Position numbers and translations under genes: made by a program. Shown here one piece after another: positions 11,197-48,842 of a DNA stretch of 59,328 nt. Location: contig PLLH01000035.1 in NCBI GenBank assembly GCA_003140895.1, positions 1-59,328 of the forward strand, read 5' to 3'. This stretch comes from Elusimicrobiota bacterium. Lineage in GTDB: Bacteria; Elusimicrobiota; Elusimicrobia; F11. Positions within the stretch are counted from its first letter, which is position 1; the number at the start of each line of letters is the position of its first letter. A model generated the notes under the pieces. The model was not told where the DNA came from. It saw only the letters and a program-made list of their open reading frames with translations, and searched no databases.

Positions 11197-11239
11197 TAAT
11201 TCGTCTCCTTTAAAAAACAATATTGTTTACCAAAACAGT

Positions 11240-13224: not shown

Positions 13225-13246
13225 ATTTTCCTTTTAGGAGCTCCTT

Positions 13247-13510: not shown

Positions 13511-13511
13511 T

Positions 13512-15994: not shown

Positions 15995-17456
15995 TGTCCG
16001 CCTGGCGCCATCGAACGGCGTTTTGATACAGGTTCACGTACGCTCGAATGGGAGAACCCCAGGAAAAATCCTGCGACATCGCCCGGCTTTGGACCGCAGC
16101 CCACTTCTTTTTTCTCCCCCACATATTGAGCGCGTGGAAGACGCAGCGCAAAAATTCACTCGACAATTTATTGGAGGCGATAAAACCGGTTCCATCGGAA
16201 TCGGTGTTCAGGTCAATAACAGTATCCAAGAGACCTCCGGTCGGAGTCACAACGGGAATCGATCCATACCGCATCGCGATCAGTTGGCTGAGCCCGCACG
16301 GTTCATACCGGGACGGCATGAGAAAAATATCCGATCCCGCCGCGATCTTATGCGCCAACGGCTCGGCGAATTTATTCTCATAAAAAAAATAGTCGGGATG
16401 TTTCAATTGCAAAACTCTCAACGCGCGCTCATATTCCAGCTCTCCACGTCCCAGGATGACGACGTGAGCCTCGTTTTGAATCAACGCCGGAATCACGTCC
16501 AGCAAATAATCCACGCCTTTCTGATAGTCCAACCGTCCCACATATCCGAACAAGGGAATCTTATCGCTGACGCGAAACTCACAATACCGCTGAAGGTCCG
16601 CCTTGCACTTTTTACGAAGAGCCAACGTTTTCACTGAGAATTTCTGGGCCAAAAACCGATCCGTGGACGGATTCCAAACGGTTGTATCCAAACCGTTCAA
16701 TATGCCCCGAAACTGCTCCGAACGATCCTGCAGAACGCCTTCCAATCCATGCCCGTAGATGGGATCGGATTGAATCTCGGTGGCGTAGGTGGGGCTCACC
16801 GTGTTAATGGCGTCCGAATAAACCAATCCCGCCTTAAGAAAGCTGATGTGATCATAGAATTCGATGCCGCCCGGATTGAATTCGCTGAAAGGAAGGCCGG
16901 TGGCCGCAAAACTGGAATTGGGAAACACGCCTTGAAAAGCCATGTTATGAATCGTGAAAAGCGACCCTGTGGATTGGAAGAACGGATCGTTCTTATAGAG
17001 ACATTTCAAATAGGCCGGAATCAACCCTGTTTGCCAATCGTGAGCATGAACAACATCAGGTGAAAATTTATTGGCCTTGGCGAGTTCCAATACGGCGCGC
17101 GAAAAAACAACAAACCGCCGGTCATTATCAATATACGCCTCGTCCGGACGGTCTCCATAAAACCCTTTCCGATTGAAATACCGTTCCGACTGAATAAAAT
17201 AGACCTTTAAATTCTTATGGAGGCTTTTCGTCCAGATCGAGATCGGATCGAAGCCTTCGGGAGAGGGCACGTAAAGGAGTTTATTGGTCTTAACCAGTTT
17301 AAATTTGGCCCGGTCGATTTGCGAATAGAGAGGTAAAACCAATTGGACGGAATGCCCCGACCTGGCCAGCGCCAGAGAGACGGCTCCAACGACATCAGCG
17401 AGTCCTCCGGTTTTACAAAAGGGGACTCCTTCACTTGCGGCTTGAAGGATCTTCAC
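15987..17456 (-). CDS. glgA: Glycogen synthase (ADP-glucose type)
   Basis: MKILQAASEGVPFCKTGGLADVVG N-terminal signature. 489 aa. Confidence 0.95.
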   Translation of the reverse strand: MKILQAASEGVPFCKTGGLADVVGAVSLALARSGHSVQLVLPLYSQIDRAKFKLVKTNKLLYVPSPEGFDPISIWTKSLHKNLKVYFIQSERYFNRKGFYGDRPDEAYIDNDRRFVVFSRAVLELAKANKFSPDVVHAHDWQTGLIPAYLKCLYKNDPFFQSTGSLFTIHNMAFQGVFPNSSFAATGLPFSEFNPGGIEFYDHISFLKAGLVYSDAINTVSPTYATEIQSDPIYGHGLEGVLQDRSEQFRGILNGLDTTVWNPSTDRFLAQKFSVKTLALRKKCKADLQRYCEFRVSDKIPLFGYVGRLDYQKGVDYLLDVIPALIQNEAHVVILGRGELEYERALRVLQLKHPDYFFYENKFAEPLAHKIAAGSDIFLMPSRYEPCGLSQLIAMRYGSIPVVTPTGGLLDTVIDLNTDSDGTGFIASNKLSSEFLRCVFHALNMWGRKKKWAAVQSRAMSQDFSWGSPIRAYVNLYQNAVRWRQADNG

Positions 17457-17459
17457 GCG

Positions 17460-18461
17460 TTAGGGGGCGTTGGCGTCTCGAAGGAACTTCGCCGCGTCTT
17501 CCGGTGGTGTTGGGTTGATATAAAACCCCGTCCCTTGCTCAAAACCAGCCAAACGCGTCAACTTAGGAATGATTTCAATATACCAATGATAATGAGGAAG
17601 GCGTGACGTTTTCAGGGGGGCCGTGTGCAAGATCAGGTTAAACGGAGGGTTGTCCAGGACGAAATGGTGTTTGGCCAAAACCAATTTAAGAAGCCCGGCC
17701 AAATTGGCCACTTCCGTCTTTTGAATATCCTGAAATTCCGATGAATGGCGGTGAGGCATAATCCAGGTCTCAAACGGGAACCGGCTGGCAAACGGGGTAA
17801 TGGCGATGAAATCTTTGTTATTGGCCACAATCCGCTGCATCTGGGCCATTTCCTGATGAATGATGTCGCAATAAACGCACCTCTCCTTATATCCATAATA
17901 ATTCTTGGAGCCGTCCCCTTCCTGTTTGACCCGGATCGGCACCATCGGCATCGCGATGAGTTGAGAATGCGGGTGGCTGATGCTGGCTCCGGCGGCGGAC
18001 CCATGATTCTTAAAAATCATGATGTACTCCAACCGGTCGTCTTTTTTCAAATCCAAAATGCGGTCTCGCCAGGACCAGATGACGTCTTCCATCTTTTGCT
18101 GAGCCAATTCATGCAGGTGTTGCCCGTGTTCCGGGGTTTCAATGATCACTTCATGAGCCCCGAGCCCGTTCATTTTGTCATACATCCCCTCTCCGGTCCG
18201 ATCCAACTCTCCTTCGATTTCAAGGGCGGGAAATTTATTCGGGATCACGCGAACCCACCATCCGGACTTATTTTTCTCACGACCGGCCGGGTAATACGCC
18301 AAGATCTCGGGCGGCGTTTTATCTTCGAAGCCGGGGCAAAAAGGACACGTGCCTCCCTGAGGCATCTCTTGATGAACCTGAAAATCGATCGGTCTCTTCC
18401 CTCGATTGGAGGAAATGATCACCCAACGGCCAATGACAGGATCTCTGCGCAATTCAGGCAT
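17460..18461 (-). CDS. galT: Galactose-1-phosphate uridylyltransferase / HIT-superfamily hexose-1-P nucleotidyltransferase
   Basis: CPFCPG zinc motif and the HIT-like HPHSQLIA active site. 333 aa. Confidence 0.85.
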   Translation of the reverse strand: MPELRRDPVIGRWVIISSNRGKRPIDFQVHQEMPQGGTCPFCPGFEDKTPPEILAYYPAGREKNKSGWWVRVIPNKFPALEIEGELDRTGEGMYDKMNGLGAHEVIIETPEHGQHLHELAQQKMEDVIWSWRDRILDLKKDDRLEYIMIFKNHGSAAGASISHPHSQLIAMPMVPIRVKQEGDGSKNYYGYKERCVYCDIIHQEMAQMQRIVANNKDFIAITPFASRFPFETWIMPHRHSSEFQDIQKTEVANLAGLLKLVLAKHHFVLDNPPFNLILHTAPLKTSRLPHYHWYIEIIPKLTRLAGFEQGTGFYINPTPPEDAAKFLRDANAP

Positions 18462-18463
18462 AA

Positions 18464-19138
18464 TTAGGACTCCACGGATTGATCCGACCCAGACGTCTCG
18501 GCGGGACTTGCCATCGCCATGACTTCTTCTGGTTGGGACGTTGATGCAACGGCCTCGGGGTTCTCATCGGACTGCGGCGAATTGTCCGACACCGGCTTCT
18601 CCTCCAGAGGAACAAGGTTGTCCAAATCCGGCAATTCGGATAAATGCTTCAACCCGAACTGGCGCAGAAACTCAACCGTTGTTCCATACAACAGCGGGCG
18701 TCCGATGGTCTCTTTCCGTCCCACCACTTTAACCAAACGCCTCTCCAGCAGGGTTTCCATCACCCCCGTCGCCTCAACGCCTCGAATTTGTTCAATTTCG
18801 GATCGGGCGATGGGTTGCTTGTAAGCGATGATCGAAAGCGTTTCGAGAGCCGAAGCGGAAAGCCGAATGGTCAACCGTTCCTTATAAAGACGGCGGATAT
18901 ACCCCCCCATGTCCGGTTTGGTGGCCATTTGAACTCCCCCCGCCACTTCAACCACATGCAGCGGAGATCCGCTCGTTTCATACGTTCCTTTGATCTCGCT
19001 CACAATGTCGGAGATGTCCGTCGTACTCAATTGCTTGGTCTCTAACACCTCAAGAATTTCTTCATTGGTGAGCGGATGATCCGTCATATATAAAAGCGTT
19101 TCGATAATTTTCCGTGCTTGATCTCTATCCATAGACAC
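18464..19138 (-). CDS. scpB: Segregation and condensation protein B
   Basis: Winged-helix ScpB pattern (LETLSIIAYKQPIARSEIEQIRGV...). Lies downstream of scpA. Confidence 0.9.
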   Translation of the reverse strand: MSMDRDQARKIIETLLYMTDHPLTNEEILEVLETKQLSTTDISDIVSEIKGTYETSGSPLHVVEVAGGVQMATKPDMGGYIRRLYKERLTIRLSASALETLSIIAYKQPIARSEIEQIRGVEATGVMETLLERRLVKVVGRKETIGRPLLYGTTVEFLRQFGLKHLSELPDLDNLVPLEEKPVSDNSPQSDENPEAVASTSQPEEVMAMASPAETSGSDQSVES

Positions 19139-19141
19139 CTC

Positions 19142-19867
19142 TTACGATGAAGGGACGGTGGCGGCGAACTCGGATGAGGCGGCGCGATTAATATGTATCT
19201 CCCCAAAGTTCGCCAATTGAGACACCCGTACCTGTTTAAGCCGAATGAGTTCCAAAAGAGCTAAAAACGTAACGATAAGATACTTTCGAGTGGATGTTTT
19301 CGGAAACAATTCGCTAAAGGGAACAAACGGTTGCGTCTCCAGCACATCCAGGATTTCGCGGATGCGGACTTCAACCGGCATTTCCTCAACCATAATTTCG
19401 CGGACGCCGACATCAGCGCTTTCCAGAACAACCTGGAACGCCGCAAGGAGTTCCTTCAACTCCACATCGATCACTTCTTCATCCTTATTAAAAATAGGCG
19501 CGCCCCGGTAAAACACATCCCGTTGAGACTCAAAATTAATCCCCAACTGGCGCGAAGCCGCTTTAAATTTCTGATACTCAAGAAGTTTTTGAATCAGTTC
19601 GGTGCGAGGATCCGGGCCTTCCATCTCTTCCGCCACATCCGCCGGCAAAAGAGTGCGCGCTTTGATTTGCATGAGAGTGGTCGCCATCACGAGGAATTCG
19701 CCGGCCACGTTGAGGTTCAATTCTTTCAGAAAATCAACATACGTCAGGTATTCAGCGGTGATATCGGAGATGGAAATATCATAGATATCCAAATCGTTCT
19801 TTTGGATCAGGTGAAGGAGAAGGTCGAGCGGCCCTTCAAAAATGTTGATCTTGACTTGATATGACAT
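19142..19867 (-). CDS. scpA: Segregation and condensation protein A (kleisin)
   Basis: FEGPLDLLLHLIQKNDLDIYDISI N-terminal ScpA signature. Confidence 0.9.
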   Translation of the reverse strand: MSYQVKINIFEGPLDLLLHLIQKNDLDIYDISISDITAEYLTYVDFLKELNLNVAGEFLVMATTLMQIKARTLLPADVAEEMEGPDPRTELIQKLLEYQKFKAASRQLGINFESQRDVFYRGAPIFNKDEEVIDVELKELLAAFQVVLESADVGVREIMVEEMPVEVRIREILDVLETQPFVPFSELFPKTSTRKYLIVTFLALLELIRLKQVRVSQLANFGEIHINRAASSEFAATVPSS

Positions 19868-21526: not shown

Positions 21527-21713
21527 AAATTATTTTTTATTTTTAAATAAAACGTGTGACTTAAGTCACACCAGGGAAATCAAAAGAACACATATTCGCA
21601 TCTATAAATAGAGTTGAATTTATATTTATTTTAAAAAAATCAATTTAAATTACAAATCCGCTCAGCACCTGAATTAAATTAATTATTGAAAATGAACATT
21701 CCCCCCTATATCC
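21527..21713. promoter_or_regulatory. AT-rich divergent intergenic island (promoter region for the giant plus-strand gene and the minus-strand CpXC/cca/scpAB run)
   Basis: This is the longest non-coding stretch in the window. My hand count gives about 47 G+C in 187 nt (~25%), against visibly GC-balanced coding DNA on both sides. Confidence 0.6.
21554..21571. promoter_or_regulatory. Perfect 18-bp palindrome with a CRP-type core (TGTGA-N6-TCACA); candidate Crp/Fnr-family operator
   Basis: GTGTGACTTAAGTCACAC is identical to its reverse complement. The core half-sites match the classical CRP consensus. Confidence 0.5.
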
Positions 21714-24700
21714 TTGCTTGAAGTTGAAACAATACCAAAAAAAAGTTGGACGAGTGAGGAAATGAGCTCAGACGAAATAAGAAAATATCAAGCCGATGAG
21801 ATAACAGATCTCTCCACCGCCAAATTGGCTCTTCGATGGTCATTGGAAAAAATTCGGCAATTGGACGATGAGATTCAGCGTCTCTCGAATCGTCTCATTT
21901 CCAAGGAAGACGAAGCCTCCAAGCTCTCCAAAGAGCTCGCCCATCAATCCACTGTCAGCCTGAACGAGAAAGAAATCACCAGCAAAACCAGCCAACTGCT
22001 CGAAGAATATCGAGGGTTGATGGGCTCTTCAATGGAACAGCTTTGGAAAAAATACGCCCCCCAAGAAGCGGCGGTTAAGAAAGAACTTCAGGATCGGGTG
22101 AGCTCCCTGGAACACGATCTTCTCCAGCGGGAACGTCAAAAAGGCCTCAACGACGAAAATTTACACAAAGCGGAAGAAAACCTGGCCCGCATCGATCGGG
22201 AACGGATTGAACTCGCCGAACAGATTCGGGACAAAGAAGTCGAAATTGTCGGTCTTCGGGAAAAGCTGGTCGGCCTCGAACCGGAAGTTCAGCGCCGCTA
22301 CAACGAAAAACTCAATCACACTCAACAGTTGTTCACTCAGCAACTGTCTCAGGCGCAAGAAGCCATTATCCAGAAAGAGCGGGAGATTCAAGACCGCCTC
22401 AATCAACAAGCGGTTCAATATCAACGTGACCGATCGGCCGCTGAGGCGGACGCGGAACGGCGCTACCAGATCAAGAAAGAAGAGCTGGAAAAGCATCGCT
22501 CCCAATGGTTGATTGAACTGGAAGAAAGCCGCCGGGAACTTCAACAGGATTTAGAAAAAGAACGCCGCCAGCTGGGAGAACAGCGGAATCTATGGGAAAC
22601 CGAATTTGCCGCCAGACGAACCGTTTTGGAAGACAACTTTTCCAGAAAAATTTCTTCCATTGAAACAGAAAAGATCCGCTTTGAAGCGGATCGGACCAAC
22701 GCCCTTGAACTCCTCAAAGCCGAGAAAGAAAAATTCCAACAAGAAGCCTCCAAGCGGTTCCGGGAACTGGCGGAGAAAGAACAAGCCATTGAGAAACAAC
22801 TTCTCGACCGCGCCAACCAGCTCATGGCCGAAAATTTAGAGCATCAACGGGAACTCGGCGACGACTATTCGAAGAAAGATTCCCTCCTCAAAGAAGCCTG
22901 GCACCAAAAAGAAGTGGAGTTTGAGAAAGCCAAGGCCGAATGGGAAAAGAATTATTATGAGAAAGACGCCGTCCGCGACCGTGAATTCCGCCTTCGGAAA
23001 GAAACGCTTGAAAAAATGTTCGCGGAGAAGGAAACGCGGTTTGTCAGCGAGCGTCAGAAATATGAAACGGAAAAAGCGCAGGCCCTTCAGACGCTTGAAT
23101 ATCAAAAACAAGAATTTGAGACTTATCTCTCCCACGAAAAGCAAAAACTGGCCTCCCTCGAGAAACTAATAAAGGAAAGCAACGAAGAGGCCTTCCGGGT
23201 TCACGAGACCAAATTGGCCGCCGAATTTGAATCTAAAATTCAAGATCTGGACAATAAACGGCGAGATCTGCTGACGAAAGAGGAACAATTGGAGGCCCAA
23301 TACAAAGCCACGGGCGAGCTCCTCGCCTCCAAGATGGAACAGGAACGCCAATCCATGCTGTCTGACCTGGAGCACCAACGCGAGCAGTTCCAACAATTTT
23401 TAAAATCGGAGACGGATCGGCTGAACAAACTGGACCACGAGCGGCGCATCCAGTGGGAAGCCCAAGTTACGAACGCCAAACACAAACAAGAAACCGAAGA
23501 AAAACGAATCCAGGAACTGGAAATCGTCCTGCGCGATCAGCAAATCAAGGAAATTCAATCGTTTGAAGTGCGTCTCGCCGCCGAATACGACAAGCGGACG
23601 CATGAACTGGAAAAACAGTCCACGGAAAAGTCCCATCTCCTGGAAGCCAATTTCAAGCAAAATGAAGATCAGCGCGAACGGACCCTGGCTCTCCTCAAAA
23701 AAGAGCTCGAGAAAACCTACGCTGACAAAGAATACGCCCTCATGATGGAGAAGCAGGAATGGGATACCATTCGGGCCGACGCGCACCGCCATATTGATAA
23801 AGACAAAAAATCCCTCGAAATGGAAATCTCCCAGAAACGGGCCTCTCTCCAAAAAGATCAGGAAGATTTCATGTCCCACATGCGGCAAGAGAAAGAAATG
23901 TGGGACGCCCAGATGAAATCGGACCAGAAACGGCTGGAAGAGATGGAACAACAGTTGGTCCAGAAAAACAACGAAGAACAAAAACTCTGGCAAGCCAAAG
24001 CCAAAGAGGACCAAATCCGGCTGGAACTCCTCGAAAAAGACCTCATGGTCAAAGTGGAGAATGAAAAAGTTCTTCTTCAGCAACGGGCGGAGGAAGTCTC
24101 TCAGCGGCTGGAAATGATGGAAGCCGACATCCAACGGAAAACCGAAGAAGATCGCGTCGCCTCTCAGGCCAAAATCGACACCCAATATCAGAAGTTGGAA
24201 AACGACGAACGGACCTTCCGCGAAAAAATGACCCATGAACAAAAAAGGTTAGAAGTCCGGAACGAAGAAATCCTCCGGACGCGCTCCGCCGAATTGGAAA
24301 AAGAACATCTTCGCCGAAAAACGGTTCTTGAAACAGAGAGTCAGGAGCAAAAAGAACGGGCGGACCTCTCCTCCCGGTCCATCGAAAAGGAATTGGGCGA
24401 TAAATACAGAACGTTGGAAGACCAGCTCATCAATGATCGAAACGAATGGAATAACCAGAGAAGTCAGACTCTCCTTGATTTGGACAATCAGCGCCTCCTC
24501 CTGAACGAGGAAAAAGCTCAATTTACGGCTCAACGACGCCGCCTGGAACAGGAAATGGCCGACAGGCTGAGTGAAGAGAAGTACCATTTGGCTCAGCACG
24601 CCAAAGCTGAGAATGAACGCCTCGCCGGGCTTGAACAGTCCTTAAATGAAAAGCACCTCCAGGCGGATCAAAACACGATTTCCCTCCAAGAAAAATACGT

Positions 24701-27233
24701 GAAATTGGAGACCGATTTGCGGGCGAGATTGACGGAAGAACAAAATCAATTGATCCACCAACAAGAAGCCCTGCATGCCCAAAAACAAGCCGAGTTGGAA
24801 CTCAACTGGAAAAACCGCTCTGAACAGTTGGAGAATAATTACGAAGAGCTTCTCTCCAAACGCCAAACAGCGTTCGAAATCAAAATGGGCGACTACGATG
24901 TCGCGATGGCGGCCCAAAAAGGTCAATTTAATCTCGAGAAGAAAGAATGGGAAGAAGCGAAAACCACCGCTCTGGAATCACTCGAATTTGAACGCCGCCG
25001 CCTCTACGAAGATATTGACCGGCGGAAGGACGAACTGGAGCACAAAGAAATCATCCTCCGTCAACGGATTGACGATGAGCGGCGCGTTCTGGACGCCAAA
25101 GCCGCCGCGGAACGCCAACGCCTGGAAGCGCTGGAAGAAGAACTCCGCGCCAAGGCCGAAGGCGAGCTTCGGTCCGCCAAGGCTCACGTTGAGGCCGAAA
25201 ACCAACGAATTGAACTCACCGAAAAAGAAATGAAGGAGAAGCAACTTCGAGAGCAAGGCATCTTCAACCAATACGTCATTGAAGAGAAAAAACGCCTGGC
25301 GGACGTCGAAAATGAACTCCGAAACCGGCTGGCCAACGAGAAAAAGGAACTTGACGCCAAGATGGAAGAGTCCTTTACGCGACGGACGGCTGAAGTGGAA
25401 GATCTCTTAAAGAAGAGAACCTCGGAGCTCGAGCAGATTGCCGAAGAAGAACGCAAACAATTGGCCCGTATGTTCGAGGCCCGGCGGGTTGAGCTGGAGA
25501 AAACCTATTACGATAAAGAAAGCCTCCTGATTCGCGAGAAAAAAGAATGGGAAGGAGAAAAATCCCTGGCCCATCAAGCCCTTCAGCATGAAAAACAAAA
25601 AGCCTTGGAAGAAATCAACGCGATCAAGGAAAAACTGGAACGGGAAAAGGAACGCTTCGCTCTCCATCACAAAGAATTTGAACGTCAAAACGTGGAAGAA
25701 CAAGAGAAGAGGAACCAGGTCCTGGAGACGGAACGGATTCGCCTGGCGGCCTTGCAGGAGTCAACCTTGGCCAGCGCCAGAGAGAAGGAAGAAGCTCTGA
25801 TGCTTCGCCAACGTCAAGAGGAAGAGCGGATTGCCACTCTTGAAAAAAGTATGCATGAGCAATTTGCCCAAAATAAGAAGGCATGGGAGGAAACTATGTT
25901 AAGAGATACTGAACAGATGGAGAAATTTGAAAAAGACTTAAGATCCCGGATCACGATGGAACATAAGAACTGGGAGATGAAAGCCGAACAATCCCATCGC
26001 CAACTGACCCAGGAACTCGAGGGGCTTTGGAAAAATCGGGCAAACCAACTGGAAGAACAGGCGCTCGCCAAGGAATCCGATAGAGAAAAGGACTTCCAAG
26101 AACTGAAAAAAGCCCTCTTGGTTGAGGTTCAAGTGAGAGAAGCCGAACTCAGGCAGACCCAACAAGCGCTGACGGAGGAACGGCGACTGGCGTTTGAAAA
26201 ATTGACTCAAGACCGGAAAGGATTTGAGTCTCAATCCGAAGAGGAACGCAAACGCCTCGAAACCATGTCCAATGAAATGCGCCGCCGAATTGAGGCCGAG
26301 CAAACCGCTCTCTATCAGCAAATGGAATCAACGCTCAAAAATCGCGCGGCGGAACTGGACGCCATGTGGCAGGAGCGGGGCGTTCTCACCCAGAAAAAAT
26401 ATGAAGAGGAAGAAGTCCAGCGGCATAAGATGCTGGCCGAAAAACAGACGACGCTCGAAAATCTCGAGAAAAAATACGTCGCCGACATGGACAAACTAGA
26501 GAAAGGGTATAACGTGCGCCTGACGCAACTTGAACAACAAAGAGCTCGTTGGGCCAAAGAAAACGAGATGGCGCTGGATCAGTTGGAAGAAGCCAAGATT
26601 AAAACCCAACAAGAAGCGGACGCCCTGCGCGAAGCGTATCGGCAAAAGGAAGAACAACTTGTTCAGCAACTGGGGCTCAAAGGGAAAGAGTTCGACGATT
26701 ACAAACGGACCGTCGAGCAAGAATGGCCGTCCCGGTTTGAAAGCCGCGTATCAGAAATTGCCGATAAAGCCCGCAAGCAATTGGCTGAAAGAGAAGCCGA
26801 CTTTGCCGTGGCTCGCAAGCAATGGCTGGAAGAAGCCACTGAGATGAAACTCAAACTCTCAGAACGCATGAATGAGCTGCAGGATTCCCTCTCGCAAAAA
26901 GAAGAGGAACTCCAGAGAAAATACCTCCAGAAACAACACGAGCTCACGATCCAAACGGAAAAGGCCCTCTCAGACCTTCACTCGAAACAGATCGCCTTTG
27001 AAAATCAGAAGGCCGAATACGAGAAGCTGGCCGAGGATGCCAACCAACGGAAAAATGAACTCGAAGAAGCGAAGAAAGACCTTCAGAAGAGACTCGAAAC
27101 CGTCACGCAGGAATTCATGCGTCAGCAAAGCGTCATGGATGAGCAGATGAGACGGCTCCAAAATGAGAAATTCGAACTCAAGCACGAAGTGGAGAAATTG
27201 GTGAATCAAACGCGGCAGCCGCGGGTCGCCTAA
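21714..27233 (+). CDS. Giant coiled-coil protein (1,839 aa from TTG 21714; 1,823 aa if ATG 21762 is used)
   Basis: Uninterrupted 5.5-kb ORF with E/K/R/Q/L-dominated heptad-like sequence throughout. I could not see a signal peptide, TM segment, Walker A or any enzymatic motif. The coding strand is strongly purine-rich. Confidence 0.85.
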   Translation: MLEVETIPKKSWTSEEMSSDEIRKYQADEITDLSTAKLALRWSLEKIRQLDDEIQRLSNRLISKEDEASKLSKELAHQSTVSLNEKEITSKTSQLLEEYRGLMGSSMEQLWKKYAPQEAAVKKELQDRVSSLEHDLLQRERQKGLNDENLHKAEENLARIDRERIELAEQIRDKEVEIVGLREKLVGLEPEVQRRYNEKLNHTQQLFTQQLSQAQEAIIQKEREIQDRLNQQAVQYQRDRSAAEADAERRYQIKKEELEKHRSQWLIELEESRRELQQDLEKERRQLGEQRNLWETEFAARRTVLEDNFSRKISSIETEKIRFEADRTNALELLKAEKEKFQQEASKRFRELAEKEQAIEKQLLDRANQLMAENLEHQRELGDDYSKKDSLLKEAWHQKEVEFEKAKAEWEKNYYEKDAVRDREFRLRKETLEKMFAEKETRFVSERQKYETEKAQALQTLEYQKQEFETYLSHEKQKLASLEKLIKESNEEAFRVHETKLAAEFESKIQDLDNKRRDLLTKEEQLEAQYKATGELLASKMEQERQSMLSDLEHQREQFQQFLKSETDRLNKLDHERRIQWEAQVTNAKHKQETEEKRIQELEIVLRDQQIKEIQSFEVRLAAEYDKRTHELEKQSTEKSHLLEANFKQNEDQRERTLALLKKELEKTYADKEYALMMEKQEWDTIRADAHRHIDKDKKSLEMEISQKRASLQKDQEDFMSHMRQEKEMWDAQMKSDQKRLEEMEQQLVQKNNEEQKLWQAKAKEDQIRLELLEKDLMVKVENEKVLLQQRAEEVSQRLEMMEADIQRKTEEDRVASQAKIDTQYQKLENDERTFREKMTHEQKRLEVRNEEILRTRSAELEKEHLRRKTVLETESQEQKERADLSSRSIEKELGDKYRTLEDQLINDRNEWNNQRSQTLLDLDNQRLLLNEEKAQFTAQRRRLEQEMADRLSEEKYHLAQHAKAENERLAGLEQSLNEKHLQADQNTISLQEKYVKLETDLRARLTEEQNQLIHQQEALHAQKQAELELNWKNRSEQLENNYEELLSKRQTAFEIKMGDYDVAMAAQKGQFNLEKKEWEEAKTTALESLEFERRRLYEDIDRRKDELEHKEIILRQRIDDERRVLDAKAAAERQRLEALEEELRAKAEGELRSAKAHVEAENQRIELTEKEMKEKQLREQGIFNQYVIEEKKRLADVENELRNRLANEKKELDAKMEESFTRRTAEVEDLLKKRTSELEQIAEEERKQLARMFEARRVELEKTYYDKESLLIREKKEWEGEKSLAHQALQHEKQKALEEINAIKEKLEREKERFALHHKEFERQNVEEQEKRNQVLETERIRLAALQESTLASAREKEEALMLRQRQEEERIATLEKSMHEQFAQNKKAWEETMLRDTEQMEKFEKDLRSRITMEHKNWEMKAEQSHRQLTQELEGLWKNRANQLEEQALAKESDREKDFQELKKALLVEVQVREAELRQTQQALTEERRLAFEKLTQDRKGFESQSEEERKRLETMSNEMRRRIEAEQTALYQQMESTLKNRAAELDAMWQERGVLTQKKYEEEEVQRHKMLAEKQTTLENLEKKYVADMDKLEKGYNVRLTQLEQQRARWAKENEMALDQLEEAKIKTQQEADALREAYRQKEEQLVQQLGLKGKEFDDYKRTVEQEWPSRFESRVSEIADKARKQLAEREADFAVARKQWLEEATEMKLKLSERMNELQDSLSQKEEELQRKYLQKQHELTIQTEKALSDLHSKQIAFENQKAEYEKLAEDANQRKNELEEAKKDLQKRLETVTQEFMRQQSVMDEQMRRLQNEKFELKHEVEKLVNQTRQPRVA

Positions 27234-27244
27234 GCGTTTTCTTT
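27208..27244 (+). terminator. Candidate intrinsic terminator embedded in the last codons of the giant ORF
   Basis: AAACGC[GGCAGCC-GCG-GGTCGCC]TAA-GCGTTTTCTTT. The inner 7-bp stem has one mismatch and one G-U. An outer AAACGC/GCGTTT pairing follows, then a T-tract that runs into the stop codon of the convergent gene. Confidence 0.35.
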
Positions 27245-28715
27245 ACTTCATTAGATCGTCGTAAATCGCTCTCTCCCGGAGGCTTCTGGGCAACTCCCCC
27301 CTCCGCCTCCACACCTCACTCAACGCCTCGTGCGCTCTTGGATCAAATGGATTGATGGCCATATAGTCCATTAAGAGCGAAACAGCCTCCCTGTCACCCG
27401 AAAGCCGGGCCAGTTCATAGTACGGAGTCCCATAATTCGGATTTTTATCGGTCGCTCGTTTCAGATAAGAAACAGCCGTATGGGGGTCTTCTAAAATTAA
27501 ACATGTCTTGGCCGCCTTGAGCAACACCACCGCATTGTCGGGTTCGTCTTTTAAGGCGCGTTCGTATTCGATGAGAGCCGCCGCCGGCTTATTACGCCGA
27601 CGCATTTGATCCCCCAATTGAACGCGGCCTTGAACATCCGCTCCAATCAACGCATTTTCCTCTACTCGTGAAAAACGAATTTCATCGGTCAACGCCCCCT
27701 TGGTTTTCTCCCATGTTTCTGTTTTTAACGCCTCTCTCCAATCCCATTCGAATTGCTCCAACGACATATTAAAAACCGAGTTGAAGGCCTCTTTAAACGG
27801 CAAACGCTGGGCCGCCTTCAGAAAACGGGCAAAGGTCGTTGGTCCCGCTTTCTTGATCAATTGTGATACCGCGTACGAGACTTCCGAAAATGCCAACGAC
27901 ACTTCTTCTTGGTTCTTTAAGTACACCATCGAAGGCGACATCCGCGCAAACGAAATCAATTCATTTTTCTCAAGCGCTTCTTTTAATTTCATTTTTTGCT
28001 CCGGCGTGAGAAAAGAAGGGACGTCCATTCGGTACGCGTTTTCAAAATAGCGGGCGGTCCCCTCATGGAACCACAAGTCAACTTTCGAGCCGGACATTTC
28101 ATTCACGATGAGATGAACGTATTCGTGCGAGAGCGCGTCCAACCATCGGTATCCCAGAGGAAGCGCCCGCGGAGAAAGAATCATGAGACGATGGAACTTG
28201 CAGATGCCGATAGCGCCGGAGCGCTCCAATGTTTCCATGCTGAGCGTCGATGCCGCTGAAAACGACTCTTGCGTCGGGTAAATTTCCACCCGGATCCGTT
28301 CTTTCGGGCGATGCCCTAGAATTTTTTCCATTGTGGCCGACGATTGCTCTAAAACCGGCAAAGCGTAATCGGACAAAAAGGTTTGGTCAGCAGGAAGGAA
28401 CAGGGAAAACCGTTCAGAATCCCGTCGGACAAACGAAGTTTGAAGAGGAATGAGCCGAGTCAAATACTCTTTCATCCAAGGAAACTGCCTCTGAGTGGGT
28501 TCATCCAAGGATTCCAGCGCCTTGGCGTAATCTCCTTTGGCGAGATAGGCGATCGCCAGCCCCTCTCGCTTCGGCGTCGCCGTTCCGGATTCCAACGCTT
28601 CGGAAACACTCGGAGATTGAGAACGATCGATTTCCCCGGGAAAAGATTCCAATTGATGCGCCGACGCCGGCCGCATCAGGAGAAAACCAAACAAGAGAAG
28701 GCCCTGCCGTTTCAT
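27243..28715 (-). CDS. Secreted MA-clan-like zinc peptidase domain (HExxH) fused to C-terminal TPR repeats
   Basis: Signal peptide MKRQGLLLFGFLLMRPASA, HEYVH followed by WFHEGTARYFE, and TPR-like repeats at the C-terminus. The track start is 28760. I prefer ATG 28715, 1 nt after the upstream stop. Confidence 0.7.
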   Translation of the reverse strand: MKRQGLLLFGFLLMRPASAHQLESFPGEIDRSQSPSVSEALESGTATPKREGLAIAYLAKGDYAKALESLDEPTQRQFPWMKEYLTRLIPLQTSFVRRDSERFSLFLPADQTFLSDYALPVLEQSSATMEKILGHRPKERIRVEIYPTQESFSAASTLSMETLERSGAIGICKFHRLMILSPRALPLGYRWLDALSHEYVHLIVNEMSGSKVDLWFHEGTARYFENAYRMDVPSFLTPEQKMKLKEALEKNELISFARMSPSMVYLKNQEEVSLAFSEVSYAVSQLIKKAGPTTFARFLKAAQRLPFKEAFNSVFNMSLEQFEWDWREALKTETWEKTKGALTDEIRFSRVEENALIGADVQGRVQLGDQMRRRNKPAAALIEYERALKDEPDNAVVLLKAAKTCLILEDPHTAVSYLKRATDKNPNYGTPYYELARLSGDREAVSLLMDYMAINPFDPRAHEALSEVWRRRGELPRSLRERAIYDDLMK

Positions 28716-28716
28716 A

Positions 28717-31700
28717 TTAGTCCGATAGCCGCTTATAATATTTCTGAATAATTTGCTCATACGCCTTGGGGTATTTTTCCTTTAACGCTTCCAATAACTC
28801 TTCACGAAATTCCCGAGGAGGACGATAATCCTCTAGACGAGGCAATTTGACGGGACCTTGATCCAACCCCTGGCCATTGCGAGAAGATCCCCTCCAAATC
28901 ACTTTGGGGCCCCCCAACGCCCCCCCCGCCCCGCCTTTTCGGCGCATCGACATTCCGCCCATTTGGTTCTGAGCCTCTCCCAGCGCATCCTGAGTATTTT
29001 GAAGATGCCGCAACGCGTTCTCTTCCGACGATTGCGCCTCATGACTTTCGAAAGAACCCAGATGGCGGCTGGCCTTGTCCATCTCTCCTTTGGCGTTCGA
29101 GAGAGATTGTGTCATGGAGATTCCCAAGCTGGCTGTTTTTTGCGACAAGGCCTGAAGGTTCTTCTTTAAGGCGGCGGTCCTTTTGGAGAGATCTGTTTGT
29201 TTATTCTCAAGCCCCGGGAACGCGCCGAGATCTCCTGATGAAAAGAGCCCCTTGGGAGGAGGGGACTTGCGCAACAGCTCCAAAATCTCACGTTCGTCTT
29301 TCTCCAACGACTCCGCCTCAGGCTGAAGGGACACCGGCGCGCTGGACGCTTTAATGCCATCGGAGGCCAACCCCATCTGCCGCACCACGCCTTCCAACAC
29401 ACCCACGCCCTCCTTGAGTCTGCCCGTCTCCATTTCATGCAAAACACCCTGCAGTGGGGCGATCTGATTGCGCAAAAGAGCGGCCGGCCCCGCGGGCACC
29501 GCGGGTTTGTTGGCAAACGAGTGCGTTCGTTCAATTAAACGCGCCTGGCGCTTCGCCAGCTGCCCCAAAAGAGTTTCCTGCTCTTTCATGAGAGCCGATA
29601 AGCGGCGCGTCTCCAGTTCCTGCGTCTTCGAAAGAAGCGTCCGTTCCTCGTCGATCACCGCGTTTAATTCCGCCTCTTGCTCCGTTATTTTTTTCGACAA
29701 TTCGCTGGCGGAGTTTTCCTCAACAAAGGAATCGTACGCTTTGGAAAGCTGGCTCTTCATTTTTTTGGCGGCTTCCAGAAATTTTTGCGCGAGCGAAAGC
29801 GCCTTTTTTGTGTCCCCCTGTTTCAGGGCCTCGGCAATCTGAGACAGAACGTCTTGCGACTCCTGAAGATTCAACGTCTTAACTCCCTCCTGATTGATGA
29901 AGTCGTCGGGCAACTCTTGAGGCATCTGCTGAACGGCGCGCGCCATGTCGGCCAACGTCCGTTGGGCTTCATTGATGAGATCGTTAATTTTGGCCATCAC
30001 GTCTTTGTTTTTGAGATCGGGCGCCGCGCTGAATTCCTTTAAGAGCTGTTCTCCAGCCTCTTGAAGCCGATCTCCCGCCTCAACCACATCCCGCGCTTTC
30101 TGATCTTTGCTCAACTTATGGGAAAGGGCCACCATTCGTTCAAGTTCAGACGACACGTCGGACAAATGAAACGAAGCCGCGGCCTTGTTGTCGGTCTGAA
30201 ACGCCGCTTCGGAATATTTCATGGGCCCCGCGTTCATGGCGGACAAATTCCCCTGAATGGACTTATGCTCCAACCAGACGCCGTAATCGGCCATCGGATC
30301 TTTTTCCATTTGGTTGACAAGGCGTTGAAGACTTTTTTCGAGGCCAAGGGAGTCGGACATCGCTTTATTGAGCGGCTCCATGAGGGAACGCAAGGAGGCG
30401 GAAGACGAATCCACGGACGCTTTGAGCGTGTTCACGTCCGCCAACAGATCCACGGCTTTTCCCCGCCACTCTTCCAGAACGGACTCCAACGCCGCGTGCG
30501 TTTTCTCAAAGCTCGCGATCTCGATCAGTCGCCAGGGGGTAAGGCTCTTGCCCGGGCCAGTCACGACATTCGCGTCGACCGCTTCCAAACGAATCTGAAT
30601 CACATCTCCCGGGCGAAATTTTTCTCCGCCCAAATCCCACTCAACCGTGGAAAGAACGGTTTCCCTGGGCGGATCAAAAAAGGCCACTTGCTTGGAACCA
30701 GAGAGCCCCCCGGATTTTTCCCACATAAGACGAACTTCAGAGACCCCGTAATCATCGGAGGCGTCAAACGTCAGCGGAAGCTTTTCTTTGTCCCCCACAA
30801 TCACATCATCGCTCGGAGACAACAGATGAATCACCGGCGGGCTGTCGGCTTGAACGTGAATCGGAAATTCCCCCACGCCAAGACCCGGGCGCCCGTTCTG
30901 CAAGTCCAAGGCGAACCGATACGTCCCGCTTTTCTCCAGCAAGAACGCCACATCCACGCTATTGTTTGATACGGTTCCCAACCGTTCCCGGCCGTCGGAA
31001 AATTGAACCAGCGCCTTGGCGACCGGCATTGAAAAATCAAGCGTCATGTGAACCTGTGTTCCCGCCAATCCGGATAATTCGAGCGACGACTGATGAGAAG
31101 CCGCCTTTTTCAGATAGGACGGCGGCGTTACAATCAATTCCGCCTTTTTCAATTGAAGGGGCTTCATCGGTCGAAGCACATATCGCGGGCTCCACTCTTT
31201 TTTCCATCTCACCTTGTAGCTGACCGGTTCAACGAGATTTCTAAGACGGAAAAAAGAATGATTCGCCGAAACAGACTCGGGCTCAAAAACCGTCCAATCA
31301 CGATGAGCTTTGATGGCCAGCTGCGGTCTCTCGATGGACGGGCAAAGAAGAGTCACTTGAATGACGGCGTCTTGCCCCCATTCCACGTTGGCGCTCCCGG
31401 GATTGACCCTTAAACAGGATTCAAGTGGACTCGTTGAAAACGGAAAATAAATCCGGGGGGTGAGTGGAAACACGTGAGGAAACGCGGCCCACAACGAACC
31501 GGCCACAATCACAACGAGACTATTAACAGCCAACGCCCTCCGCCACATCCACCGAGGACAACACGCCCACGGACGTTGCTGTTTAACGGTCGAGGCCGCC
31601 TCTCGCAGATACTCTTCGCGCAAACCGGAGGAGAGACCGGGGCGCTCTGTCTGAGAAGACAATTGAACCGCTAAAAACAGCGTATCTCGACGAAGAAGTT

Positions 31701-32001
31701 CGCCAGACCCCTGTTCTCTGGATCTGTTACGCCAGAGATTTTTCGATTGTTCCTTTATAGAAAACAACGTGAGCGGCAAGAACGCATGGAGAGCGAGGGC
31801 CCCGGCCAAAAGAAGCATTGCGATCCAGACGGTTTCCCTCACCCAGGACTCCATCACAAGCCATTGATCGAAACCGCTGAGGAGAAGGCAGGAACTCACC
31901 AGAAGAGGTATCGCGCGCGACATCCCCTTGAACAACAAGGACAGGAAAACGCAAAGCCTCGCTTTCCGCAGAAAGAGACGGATTTCAGGAATCGCGTTCA
32001 C
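28717..32001 (-). CDS. Large envelope protein, DUF4175-like architecture
   Basis: N-terminal TM helices, a central beta-rich region (...DASDDYGVSEVRLMW...), a long Q/L/A/E-rich helical C-terminal half, and the tail ...YEQIIQKYYKRLSD. The track start 32043 is GTG. GTG 32001 forms a GTGA overlap with the upstream stop, and ATG 31923 is another option. Confidence 0.65.
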   Translation of the reverse strand: MNAIPEIRLFLRKARLCVFLSLLFKGMSRAIPLLVSSCLLLSGFDQWLVMESWVRETVWIAMLLLAGALALHAFLPLTLFSIKEQSKNLWRNRSREQGSGELLRRDTLFLAVQLSSQTERPGLSSGLREEYLREAASTVKQQRPWACCPRWMWRRALAVNSLVVIVAGSLWAAFPHVFPLTPRIYFPFSTSPLESCLRVNPGSANVEWGQDAVIQVTLLCPSIERPQLAIKAHRDWTVFEPESVSANHSFFRLRNLVEPVSYKVRWKKEWSPRYVLRPMKPLQLKKAELIVTPPSYLKKAASHQSSLELSGLAGTQVHMTLDFSMPVAKALVQFSDGRERLGTVSNNSVDVAFLLEKSGTYRFALDLQNGRPGLGVGEFPIHVQADSPPVIHLLSPSDDVIVGDKEKLPLTFDASDDYGVSEVRLMWEKSGGLSGSKQVAFFDPPRETVLSTVEWDLGGEKFRPGDVIQIRLEAVDANVVTGPGKSLTPWRLIEIASFEKTHAALESVLEEWRGKAVDLLADVNTLKASVDSSSASLRSLMEPLNKAMSDSLGLEKSLQRLVNQMEKDPMADYGVWLEHKSIQGNLSAMNAGPMKYSEAAFQTDNKAAASFHLSDVSSELERMVALSHKLSKDQKARDVVEAGDRLQEAGEQLLKEFSAAPDLKNKDVMAKINDLINEAQRTLADMARAVQQMPQELPDDFINQEGVKTLNLQESQDVLSQIAEALKQGDTKKALSLAQKFLEAAKKMKSQLSKAYDSFVEENSASELSKKITEQEAELNAVIDEERTLLSKTQELETRRLSALMKEQETLLGQLAKRQARLIERTHSFANKPAVPAGPAALLRNQIAPLQGVLHEMETGRLKEGVGVLEGVVRQMGLASDGIKASSAPVSLQPEAESLEKDEREILELLRKSPPPKGLFSSGDLGAFPGLENKQTDLSKRTAALKKNLQALSQKTASLGISMTQSLSNAKGEMDKASRHLGSFESHEAQSSEENALRHLQNTQDALGEAQNQMGGMSMRRKGGAGGALGGPKVIWRGSSRNGQGLDQGPVKLPRLEDYRPPREFREELLEALKEKYPKAYEQIIQKYYKRLSD

Positions 32002-33674
32002 GAACCCCCGGCTTTCCCGGAGGGAGAGCGAGCCGGCGCCCACCTTTTAAGGATCTCGGGATGATCGGAAAAATCATAGACGAAAATACTGTATCCAATC
32101 ACCTTCCACGGTTTATAGTCCTTTAACCACGCGTACACATCTTTCCGCGTGTAATACGTCGACTGAAGGTGCGTTGCCGAAATGGCGAATTTGGTCGGTT
32201 GAAAACGCGGATCAGCCCGATCGTCCTCCCGGCCGCCAATCGGAATCGGGCCTAAATCCATATAGCGAATCCCATAGGCGTGAGGGTCTCCGACGCCAAA
32301 ATAACACAAGTAAATCCCTTTCTCGATATCCGACGGTTCCAACGCCTGCTTAAGCAATTTAAGTCCCTGCCCCCAATCGAGATTAGAATCCGTTAAATAA
32401 CGGACTCCGTTTCGAGGACCGCCCACGGCTTCGTTGAAGTAGGCGATGTAATGAGGTTTGACGGAAACACACGCAACGATCGACCAGCCGATAAGAAGTC
32501 CGCCCACCCAAATAAACCGGTTTGACAATTTGGAAAGTCCCACCGCGGCCGCCACAAATAGAAAGGGATAGACCGCCAAGATGTGCCGATGCCCAATCTG
32601 AACGGTGGACGCGCACGCCAAACAAAAGAAAACGAGGGGCGGAATACAAAGAAACGGGGACAGCACTATCTTTTTTTTGATGAACATCGCCAGTGAAATC
32701 CCCAAACCGATAAGGAGTGGAATCGGTGTTTTAATTAAAAAGACCGCCGGGAAATAGCCCAGCCATCCTGTGACCCGGTGATCTCCAAAGAAAAAGCTGC
32801 CGCGGCCCCGTTGATTCCGGAACATGGCTTCCTTCAATCCTTCCCAATAGATCGATAAATTTCCAAACCCATAAACAAACCACAACGTCAGAAAAGCGAC
32901 GGACACAAGACACAGAAAAGAGATTTGCTTCTTTCGTTCCATGAGAAAGGGCTCAGCCAAAAAGCGCTCTCCGTGACGAACCCGGCGGAGCCCCCTCCAT
33001 AAGAGAAGGGCTAGAACGGAGGGAAGAATGGCCACAGACATATGTTTACTGGCCAGACAAAGCCCCAATGAAATCCCCGCCAAAGCGGCGATCAAAAAGC
33101 TTTCTCCCAGAACCGAACACAACATAAAAAACGCCGAGAAGAATAAAGCGAACGCAAAGTCCGTCGTCACAACGGTGCCGTTGGCCAGAATAATCGGCGA
33201 AAAGCACCAGAAGACAAGAGCGTAGAGCGCCGCCTTCCCGCCGGCGGATTTCCTTACAAACCAGAAAAGAAAGCCCCCCATCAGCAGAGACAAGAGAAGC
33301 TGCATCAAACGTCCAGCGGTCAACAACGTGTCCGCGGACACATGGTTGTGATACAGAAAGCGATCCGCGAACGTATATTGATCCAGAGCGTTCCATTCCT
33401 GACGTACCCAAGCCGCGTCATTGATCGGAAGGCTTGAAGGGAGGACCAAGAGGGGAAGAGCCGCCCACATCTCGGCAAACGGCGGATGATGAAATCCGGC
33501 GAATCGAAAATCTCCTGTTTTGAGATAAATGGCGCCGGCGGTCAAATGAACCGGTTCATCGTATGTCGGCGAAAAAACCCGGATCGGTTCCAACGCCAAA
33601 AGAACATGAATCAGGCACAATCCGCCGGCAACGACAAAAAGAAGTCTTGTTTTTTGTTTTTTAATGTCTCGCAT
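31998..33674 (-). CDS. GT-C fold glycosyltransferase, PMT/ArnT (family 39/83)-like, paralog 2
   Basis: 558 aa. First-loop motif YDEPVHLTAG, at least 10 hydrophobic helices, and a C-terminal soluble domain with YLTDSNLDWGQGLKLLKQAL. Confidence 0.7.
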   Translation of the reverse strand: MRDIKKQKTRLLFVVAGGLCLIHVLLALEPIRVFSPTYDEPVHLTAGAIYLKTGDFRFAGFHHPPFAEMWAALPLLVLPSSLPINDAAWVRQEWNALDQYTFADRFLYHNHVSADTLLTAGRLMQLLLSLLMGGFLFWFVRKSAGGKAALYALVFWCFSPIILANGTVVTTDFAFALFFSAFFMLCSVLGESFLIAALAGISLGLCLASKHMSVAILPSVLALLLWRGLRRVRHGERFLAEPFLMERKKQISFLCLVSVAFLTLWFVYGFGNLSIYWEGLKEAMFRNQRGRGSFFFGDHRVTGWLGYFPAVFLIKTPIPLLIGLGISLAMFIKKKIVLSPFLCIPPLVFFCLACASTVQIGHRHILAVYPFLFVAAAVGLSKLSNRFIWVGGLLIGWSIVACVSVKPHYIAYFNEAVGGPRNGVRYLTDSNLDWGQGLKLLKQALEPSDIEKGIYLCYFGVGDPHAYGIRYMDLGPIPIGGREDDRADPRFQPTKFAISATHLQSTYYTRKDVYAWLKDYKPWKVIGYSIFVYDFSDHPEILKRWAPARSPSGKAGGS

Positions 33675-33678
33675 GGCG

Positions 33679-41618: not shown

Positions 41619-41629
41619 AACGATTCACG

Positions 41630-45330: not shown

Positions 45331-45360
45331 GATGAGCAACTCGTTCAACTTTTGTTAAGT

Positions 45361-45434: not shown

Positions 45435-45438
45435 CTGG

Positions 45439-48704: not shown

Positions 48705-48842
48705 GGAGACCTCCTGGTTAACTGCTTCCCAATAGAACGAAGAAGCCGCGCTAAAATTCCAGGACAATAAAAATACCTAAGGATATTTCCATCTTCGTTC
48801 GCATTGAATAAGATTCGTCCTGGTAAAAAAACAGGAGAATCA

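Follow-up and report, generated by a model that had tools for sequence, protein, structure and literature searches.

A giant, predicted all-helical rod protein of Elusimicrobiota with hendecad-type periodicity and a conserved N-terminal motif: a candidate internal scaffold

A window of 59,328 nucleotides from an Elusimicrobiota bacterium (contig PLLH01000035.1 of assembly GCA_003140895.1, the whole of the stretch of DNA analysed here) carries a plus-strand gene for a protein of more than 1,800 residues, and the question that this locus raises is what kind of molecule this giant is and what a cell might use it for. A preliminary description, made from the letters of the sequence, had presented it as a lone coiled-coil giant built from heptads, with neither a targeting signal nor an enzymatic motif, and had placed it beside the bacterial cytoskeletal proteins crescentin, FilP and Scy. 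We find that the gene is real, conserved and syntenic, that structure prediction renders its product as a near-continuous alpha-helix with no ATPase heads, and that about 90% of the length of this rod has a hendecad-type periodicity with a local period of 3.6-3.7 residues. A scaffold or filament role, plausible though unproven, is what analogy with known bacterial rods probably points to, and we infer from the features set out below an oligomeric state, a function of this kind and the existence of a binding partner. In its specific form, in which the giant is a cytoplasmic, self-associating helical rod that serves as an internal scaffold or filament, this is the reading that we prefer, and we hold it with about as much doubt as belief.

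A helical rod with hendecad-type periodicity

Numbered from the ATG at position 21762, the protein has 1,823 residues, among which Glu (18%), Leu (11.5%), Lys (10.3%), Gln (9.7%), Arg (9.1%) and Ala (8%) predominate. Glu, Leu, Lys, Gln and Arg together account for 58.5%, as the preliminary description had indicated, and there are only 4 Pro and 21 Gly (25 in total), 21 Trp and no Cys. The net charge is -64, the grand average of hydropathy (GRAVY) is -1.29 and the best Kyte-Doolittle window of 19 residues reaches 0.24; on these values a transmembrane segment and a signal peptide are absent, as had been proposed, and the acidic N-terminus is free of hydrophobic stretches. Regular-expression searches of the protein gave no Walker A (GxxxxGK[ST]) or Walker B motif and it contains no LPXTG. 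When the full protein was compared with Pfam, NCBIfam, PHROGs and PDB sequences there was no significant match, so the earlier exclusion of an SMC/Rad50-like protein holds and homology to a known family of defined function did not emerge. Profile searches of the PDB returned generic coiled coils only, plus one non-significant match that is considered below.

AlphaFold2 was run on monomers only. Residues 17-329, supplied with a 14-sequence alignment, were modelled as one helix of 313 residues with a mean predicted local distance difference test score (pLDDT) of 82 and a predicted template modelling score (pTM) of 0.28; pLDDT exceeds 90 over residues ~70-240 and falls below 50 over residues 1-14. 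Residues 560-960, modelled from the single sequence, gave helices at 561-674, 682-819 and 823-959 (mean pLDDT 79, pTM 0.21). These models contain no globular domains or confident fold-back bundles, and nothing was returned when they were used to search the PDB with Foldseek. The earlier statement that no globular heads are evident stands as far as the models go, but it had overlooked a conserved N-terminal module that consists of an invariant motif and a heptad segment. Folded-back bundles of the spectrin or EzrA kind were also considered and are not supported, the predicted helices being continuous without confident hairpins and Foldseek giving no match.

The periodicity of the rod was assessed from the positions of Leu, Ile, Val, Met and Phe as a mean local power spectrum, with z-scores taken against shuffled sequences. 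The spectrum peaks at 3.60-3.65 residues, with z of 17-18 for the window protein and 22 for its longest orthologue (L001), and at a period of 3.5 z is only ~7, with no 7/3 harmonic. In the autocorrelation there are peaks at lags 7, 11, 18, 29, 40 and 58; lag 51 is positive and lag 14 weak, and the values at lags 21 and 28 are below zero. Human tropomyosin, which served as a positive control with the same script, gave a period of 3.50 and lags 7, 14, 21, 28, 35 and 42. Hendecad-type coiled coils, which have almost no supercoil, are recognised by a series that grows as 7 + 11 + 11 and so on (18/5, 29/8, 40/11 and 51/14, or 3.60-3.64). Given that lags 11, 18, 29 and 40 are present, that lags 21 and 28 are negative and that the tropomyosin control behaves differently, the rod is of the hendecad and not the heptad type. 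For reference, the number of residues per turn is 3.63 in an undistorted helix and 3.67 in hendecads (PMC9858780).

The heptads of the preliminary description are thereby displaced from most of the molecule. They are found over residues 17-86, where the period is 3.44-3.48 in the four Elusimicrobiota proteins and in each of the eleven wider-family proteins with the motif (A-type) that were tested, and, less clearly, in the last ~100 residues, which lean towards heptad periodicity (3.54).

When the sequence is placed on a helical wheel, Leu, Met, Phe, Trp and Tyr lie on the hydrophobic face, at a mean of 30-65 degrees from the moment, and Ala lies 101-112 degrees from it, while Lys, Arg, Glu and Asp have similar angular distributions without class-A segregation. 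No residue type is better conserved than Trp, which faces this hydrophobic seam: 17 of 19 aligned Trp positions are identical in the L004 orthologue and 14 of 17 in the L006 orthologue (89% and 82%), for which the overall BLAST identities are 46% and 36-40%. About 22 Trp had been counted at first, almost always in the context x-W-(E/D/Q/K). The count is 21 and the context applies to 14 of them; what stands is that they are unusual, in that they are conserved and face the seam.

The rod also has an internal module of ~49 residues, ELEKxYxxKExxLxxEKxEWexxRxxALxxLexE, which recurs some 9-12 times at irregular spacing. It was detected by a BLOSUM diagonal scan and an iterated hidden Markov model, in which a three-copy seed found further copies at E 1e-6 to 3e-5; later iterations were self-trained and their E-values are inflated. 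A self-BLAST of the protein gave the identity match only.

Orthologues, the signature motif and a wider family of rods

A scan of one genome per GTDB species yielded one relative, in an Elusimicrobiota metagenome-assembled genome (L001), and a single N-terminal fragment at NCBI carries the annotation "hypothetical protein [Elusimicrobia bacterium]". The L001 orthologue has 2,798 residues and is collinear with the window protein over residues 1-732 at 40% identity; its later parts match residues 577-1032 of the window protein. Scanning metagenomes added orthologues of 1,520 (L004) and 1,524 (L006) residues, along with partial ones. The orthologues are collinear with the window protein at 36-50% identity and their indels are in frame. 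Sizes of up to 2,798 residues bear out the remark that such a protein stands at the extreme among bacterial coiled-coil-rich proteins. A search for homologues had been proposed at the outset, and with syntenic orthologues and a wider metagenome family now in hand the protein is no orphan.

The gene keeps its place. In L001, L004 and L006 it diverges from the CpXC gene and converges on the gene for a TPR/peptidase-MA protein, as it does in the window, and in the partial loci L002, L005 and L007 it comes directly after the CpXC gene. It always follows the minus-strand run GlgA-GalT-ScpB-ScpA-PolyA_pol-CpXC and lies on the opposite strand to it, and what follows downstream in L001, L004 and L006, the loci whose contigs reach far enough, is the end of a long minus-strand operon of the MoxR/BatA type, with its TPR/peptidase-MA and DUF4175 genes. 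It is thus a stable, monocistronic chromosomal gene that has undergone in-frame changes of length.

Conservation along the protein is uneven. It is highest over residues 1-120, which are 63-78% identical to the orthologues and contain the signature motif D-x2-T-A-K-L-A-L-R-W-x2-E; D16, with which the motif begins, stands just before the helix start predicted by AlphaFold2 at residue 17. Three other parts of the protein are well conserved (Table 1), of which the island at residues 721-840 is also kept in the 2,798-residue orthologue and in two metagenome fragments (P0007 and P0013), and the stretches between these islands are poorly conserved and prone to indels. The insertion at residues ~961-1190 resembles residues ~1257-1530 of the same protein, which points to the duplication of an internal module.

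The motif reaches well beyond these orthologues. Written as D-x2-TAKLALRW-x2-E, it is invariant across 13 diverse members of a wider family, and a search of metagenome contigs for the motif pattern gave 68 loci, about 60 of which (GC content 27-67%) encode proteins that begin "...LDPSTITDVETAKLALRWAVEKI..." and consist of Glu, Lys, Arg, Gln and Leu to 53-64%. Full-length rods of this wider family mostly have 830-1,070 residues. Their homology to the window protein is detectable only in the N-terminal ~110 residues (BLASTP E 4e-8), and a profile of their N-termini matches window-protein residues 10-126 at E 1e-9 (four sequences, HMMER filters off). All of the rods tested are of the hendecad type, with a period of 3.65-3.70, positive lags at 11, 22 and 33 and negative lags at 21 and 28. 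The window protein has the features by which the family is defined, namely the motif at the start of the helix, the heptad segment and a hendecad-type rod of at least 800 residues.

These TAKLALRW rods are an unannotated family of a known structural kind, the hendecad subtype of bacterial coiled-coil-rich proteins. They are not categorically new, the structural class being known, and a survey of hendecad families that Martinez-Goikoetxea and Lupas reportedly published in 2023 may already list them; Walshaw and colleagues are likewise said to have described, in 2010, a 51-residue repeat of Scy.

In 25 of the 37 larger loci a second rod gene, of ~850-1,050 codons, lies behind the first, with a median gap of 19 nucleotides between them (two examples are given in Table 1). 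The second rod is also of the hendecad type and its N-terminus, "ELDSAKMILRL", is weakly related to that of the first (E ~3e-4), and the two paired rods may form a heteromeric pair. The match in length between paired rods was not used as evidence for heterodimers, r being only 0.35-0.38. The Elusimicrobiota giants resemble the first rod and not the second, and the 59-kb window has no second-rod gene. That the giant is a fusion of both rods was considered and rejected, since only its N-terminal ~110 residues match the first rod and none match the second. Other neighbours in the wider family (M16 peptidases, L28, polyamine synthesis, exonuclease VII) are housekeeping genes and uninformative.

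Full-length genes for proteins of 830-2,800 residues are present on JGI/ENA contigs, yet protein collections yield only fragments of up to 281 residues. An exhaustive HMMER search with residues 1-1200 found 14 fragments only, none longer than 281 residues, N-terminal and profile searches of protein databases again gave fragments only, and exact look-ups of ten full-length wider-family proteins did not find them. The full-length query against an index of 5.8 billion proteins gave no relative among the matches listed, where E/K-rich proteins probably crowd them out. Since full-length members seem to be missing or filtered from protein collections, the size of the family is underestimated.

It may be that the TAKLALRW rods constitute an undescribed cytoskeletal system in several bacterial lineages (GC content 27-67%), mostly as co-transcribed pairs of ~1,000-residue rods and in one Elusimicrobiota clade as a single homomeric giant of 226-416 nm, a length similar to that of these very small cells, whose modular changes in length would then tune a cell dimension or the distance between two cellular sites, but we regard this wider proposal as doubtful.

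Comparison with known rods and candidate functions

Scy and FilP are bacterial cytoskeletal proteins in which a conserved N-terminal motif precedes a heptad coiled coil and extended hendecad regions; members of this type range from fewer than 200 to more than 1,000 residues, with Scy about four times the size of FilP, an RGYDxxEVD-type motif directly before the heptad coiled coil is the mark of their DivIVA-like domain, and their hendecad core is rich in Ala (PMC9858780). The window protein has the same layout of motif, heptad segment and hendecad rod, with variable length, and in every motif-bearing member tested a heptad segment comes after the N-terminal motif, as in DivIVA, GpsB, FilP and Scy, a resemblance that is one of layout only. 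Homology was not detected, however, and D-x2-TAKLALRW stands in place of RGYDxxEVD: neither GYD nor [REGFT]GYDxxE[VIL]D occurs in the window protein, three orthologues or 15 wider-family proteins, the window protein has no match to DivIVA in Pfam at E <=1, and DivIVA and GpsB structures are absent among the PDB profile matches. The core also differs, in that it is made of Leu, Met, Phe, Trp and Tyr and not of Ala. The giants are larger (1,823-2,798 residues, with Scy at roughly 1,300) and occur in the phylum Elusimicrobiota, with the family extending to other lineages, whereas Scy and FilP are proteins of Streptomyces and other Actinobacteria.

Crescentin and the coiled-coil-rich proteins of Helicobacter, Bdellovibrio and cyanobacteria are, like the giant, cytoplasmic, non-enzymatic, predicted all-helical rods and candidate self-assemblers. 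They are described as heptad-based with stutters, whereas the giant is ~90% hendecad-type, shows no homology to them and is 2-6 times longer, and its spectrum (z ~7 at 3.5 against 17-18 at 3.6-3.65) is not that of a crescentin-type, heptad-dominated rod. The first comparison with crescentin, FilP and Scy therefore survives as an analogy only, and it is the layout of Scy and FilP that it fits. SMC, Rad50 and MukB share with the giant very long helical arms, and scpA and scpB adjoin the giant gene, but the giant has no Walker A or B motif, no head or hinge domain and no Pfam or NCBIfam match.

If the giant is a self-associating scaffold or filament, its parts could be assigned as follows. Residues 1-16 would form a short, acidic, disordered tip, and the invariant motif at the start of the helix would dock a conserved partner or the end of another rod. 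The N-terminal zipper of ~70 residues would set the register of a parallel homo-oligomer, and the ~1,600-residue hendecad coiled coil, being almost unsupercoiled, would act as a straight and rigid spacer with a narrow seam of conserved Trp, Tyr and Phe and with dense intrahelical salt bridges that stiffen it. Such a rod may associate side by side with others into filaments of the intermediate-filament type, in the manner of Scy and FilP, or may span the cell as a tether or scaffold. The islands at residues 721-840, 1381-1440 and 1621-1800 would then be binding or assembly sites, and the indel-prone stretches between them would set the length, which internal module duplication could vary between 1,520 and 2,798 residues. 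At 0.1485 nm per residue the extended window protein would measure 271 nm (~270), the L004 and L006 orthologues 226 nm each and the L001 orthologue 416 nm.

Several points weigh against this interpretation. The searches turned up no homologue among characterised cytoskeletal proteins. Any amphipathic helix would likewise show a period of 3.6-3.65, so we infer the coiled coil and do not see it directly, the AlphaFold2 models being of monomers and the Foldseek search empty. Hydrophobic residues make up just ~22-25% of the protein, which leaves a thin seam, often with Arg, Glu or Lys inside it. Bulky aromatics are hard to fit into the hendecad core of a dimer, where Scy and FilP use Ala (PMC9858780), and on this steric argument a simple symmetric dimer of the Scy/FilP type is disfavoured and a higher-order or staggered assembly fits better. 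The neighbourhood provides no functional link, since the gene is monocistronic and opposed to both of its neighbours, and the protein databases yielded fragments only, which gives a limited view of the taxonomic range.

The low hydrophobic content and the high net charge would suit a protein that does not associate at all, namely a single alpha-helix of the ER/K type that acts as a monomeric spacer, a rigid ruler or tether between binding sites at its N- and C-termini. Residues of opposite charge are paired at i+3 and i+4 far more often than expected (z 4-9.5 in three of four orientation classes, with base-to-acid pairs at i+3 near expectation) and residues of the same sign less often (z -8 to -11), from which the helix appears strongly self-stabilised, and the confidently modelled 313-residue monomer helix is in line with this. 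We nevertheless consider a single helix unlikely, given that the hydrophobic stripe remains coherent over tens of residues (lags 29, 40 and 58; z 5-11), that the seam-facing Trp, Tyr and Phe are the best conserved residues and that the N-terminal heptad pattern is typical of a zipper. Should the rods prove to be monomeric ER/K-type helices after all, they would be among the longest natural ones.

The location of the gene invites another explanation, in which the rod is a chromosome or division tether that links the nucleoid or divisome to another site in the cell, as in ZapB/MatP-like or Scy/ParA-like arrangements. Throughout the Elusimicrobiota clade the gene has kept its position beside scpA-scpB and near genes for FtsX-like and M23 peptidase proteins, and the N-terminal heptad segments of 8 of 13 wider-family proteins match ZapB (PF06005), itself a short heptad coiled coil and the one Pfam family with repeated matches, below the threshold (best 25.7 bits, E 1.7e-5; cut-off 31.5). 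ZapB, with 81 residues, is however a short protein and not a giant rod, neither the window protein nor its orthologues match it at E <=1, and hhalign against E. coli ZapB gave a probability of 16% with an alignment that misses the invariant motif. The giant gene moreover lies on the opposite strand with what appears to be its own promoter, the synteny is absent from the wider family, and the strongly acidic protein carries no DNA-binding motif, all of which makes a tether of this sort quite unlikely.

Periodicity of the 11/3 type is characteristic of apolipoprotein-, perilipin- and LEA-type proteins, and the giant, which shares it together with a composition rich in Glu, Lys, Gln and Leu, might instead be an amphipathic surface binder that lies flat on a membrane or on a lipid or storage granule, or else a stress protectant. 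Apolipoprotein A-I is the best PDB profile match of the N-terminal profile, although it is non-significant (E 0.25), and the N-terminus of one orthologue matches Pfam Apolipoprotein at E 0.0014, which falls well short of the cut-off; the conserved Trp could sit at an interface, and glycogen-metabolism genes are nearby. The strong acidity and low GRAVY value of the giant, its narrow seam without class-A charge segregation, its N-terminal heptad zipper and the near absence of Pro or Gly punctuation all argue in the other direction, every one of the database matches is below threshold, and we judge a surface binder to be improbable.

A secreted or surface fibrillar protein with a missed signal (similar to an M protein or an adhesin stalk) or a tape-measure-like phage protein is highly improbable and largely refuted. 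Aromatics in phase with an 11-residue-type periodicity have been reported for tape-measure proteins, and the giant is long and helical with its aromatics so placed, but its acidic N-terminus has no hydrophobic stretch, a signal peptide, LPXTG and transmembrane segment are absent, and there is no PHROGs match, no relative in 2.9 million viral contigs and a stable chromosomal synteny with housekeeping genes. A chance reading frame or an assembly artefact, which the low-complexity composition alone might suggest, is refuted and has a negligible probability in view of the 5.5-kb open frame, the identical protein with the same gene call on three independent public contigs (two of 50-200 kb and one of 0.2-1 Mb) and the lack of a DNA tandem repeat in the gene, which make the collapsed repeat that had been feared unlikely, and of collinear orthologues with in-frame indels, a conserved start codon and promoter-like element, and uneven, residue-specific conservation (Trp 82-89%).

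Long hendecad coiled coils are uncommon, and standard predictors are poor at recognising them; to our knowledge, the bacterial ones with a link to function are mainly the actinobacterial proteins Scy and FilP. The TAKLALRW rods would be a second family, unrelated to these, with the same physical design of head motif, heptad zipper and straight hendecad rod, and their occurrence in Elusimicrobiota and other lineages suggests that unsupercoiled rods have been adopted convergently as scaffolds on the scale of the cell. The invariant eight-residue motif provides a handle for finding further members, mapping their distribution and fishing for partners, and the giant itself offers a definite candidate for an internal skeleton, or a ruler, in Elusimicrobiota, which are mostly uncultured and often very small.

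Gene start, upstream region and neighbouring genes

The uninterrupted open frame of 1,839 codons at 21714-27233, on which the preliminary description was based, is present, but the start and with it the length are revised to the ATG at 21762 and 1,823 residues. This ATG is best read as the true start because the public gene call is identical there, a GAGG precedes it and conservation among the orthologues begins at M1, encoded as ATG; the first letter of the TTG at 21714 is at the same time the final base of a conserved -10-like hexamer. The coordinates of this and the other features are collected in Table 1.

Table 1. Positions of features of the giant rod gene in the 59,328-nucleotide window, with two examples of paired rod genes from wider-family loci
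Feature	Position	Strand	Remarks
Giant helical rod coding sequence	21762..27233	+	1,823 amino acids plus stop; public gene call, collinear syntenic orthologues
AT-rich divergent intergenic region, shared with minus-strand CpXC gene	21527..21761	.	235 nucleotides; 27% GC
Promoter-like TTGAAA-N17-TATCCT	21686..21714	+	Consensus scan and alignment of 7 upstream regions
Shine-Dalgarno-like GAGG	21756..21759	+	2 nucleotides before the ATG; read from the sequence
Signature motif D-x2-T-A-K-L-A-L-R-W-x2-E, residues 16-30	21807..21851	+	Two alignments; the next K is nearly invariant
N-terminal heptad-type coiled-coil segment, residues ~17-86	21810..22019	+	Period 3.44-3.48
Hendecad-type rod, residues ~87-1722	22020..26927	+	Period 3.6-3.7, i/i+3 and i/i+4 salt bridges, aromatic seam
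Conserved island, residues 721-840	23922..24281	+	47-78% identity; candidate docking or assembly site
Lineage-specific insertion, residues ~961-1190 (~230)	24642..25331	+	Absent from the 1,520- and 1,524-residue orthologues (L004, L006)
Conserved island, residues 1381-1440	25902..26081	+	72% identity to both orthologues
Conserved C-terminal region, residues 1621-1823	26622..27230	+	60-70% identity
GC-rich palindrome CGCGGCAGCCGCG	27211..27223	.	Last codons of the giant gene; pattern match only
Rod gene pair, locus L009	9968-12979 and 12981-15881		
Rod gene pair, locus L039	10001-12622 and 12634-15372		

The region upstream contains the lowest-GC stretch of 235 nucleotides in the window, which as a whole has 52.5% GC. 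Across seven orthologous loci (the window, L001, L002 and L004-L007) the -10 region (ATCCTT) of the promoter-like element is invariant and the -35 region largely conserved, and the element may well act as the promoter of the giant gene, in agreement with the AT-rich promoter island that had been described. In L002 and L005 only ~10 nucleotides separate the -10 box from the ATG, so the mRNAs of these two loci would be nearly leaderless, and the leader in the window would be ~40 nucleotides long and includes the GAGG.

At its other end, the giant gene runs head-on into the minus-strand gene at 27243-28760 with 9 bp (27234-27242) between the two stop codons, just as first noted. The palindrome CGCGGCAGCCGCG in its last codons is followed by TTTGATT when read on the minus strand, and it may be a terminator for the convergent operon that is embedded in the coding sequence of the giant. 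Within the giant gene there are also antisense open reading frames, one of 280 codons on the minus strand at 23400-24242 and several more of 100-130 codons, which are probably by-products of a coding strand rich in GAA and AAG and not genes.

The convergent minus-strand run occupies ~19 kb (27243-46437) and encodes a MoxR AAA+ ATPase, a DUF58 protein, a BatA-VWA-DUF4159 fusion of 944 residues, a GATase1-like protein, two TMEM260-like GT-C proteins with TPR repeats, a 553-residue protein without a Pfam match, a PMT_2 GT-C protein, a DUF4175 protein of 1,108 residues and a TPR-peptidase-MA protein. It is an expanded operon of the Bat/aerotolerance type with additional enzymes resembling protein mannosyltransferases, and the TPR-peptidase-MA, DUF4175 and PMT_2-like genes with which it ends are also found in those orthologous loci that extend this far.

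The giant gene had been called the only long plus-strand reading frame in the window; it is the sole one of more than 500 codons, but a second plus-strand gene, for a thiolase of 464 residues, lies at 48804-50198. The thiolase gene is flanked on the minus strand by genes for a dienelactone hydrolase (47925-48767) and a tyrosine recombinase of the XerC/XerD type (50220-51152).

On the other side of the giant gene, a minus-strand cluster at 9883-19867 has an envelope and division flavour. It encodes a CtpA-like S41 peptidase, an EnvC-like M23 peptidase, a 277-residue protein, a polysaccharide pyruvyl transferase, a DUF5693 protein, glycogen synthase, GalT, ScpB and ScpA. The order of these genes is conserved in L002 and in L004-L006, and the counterpart of the 277-residue protein in L002 carries an FtsX extracellular domain.

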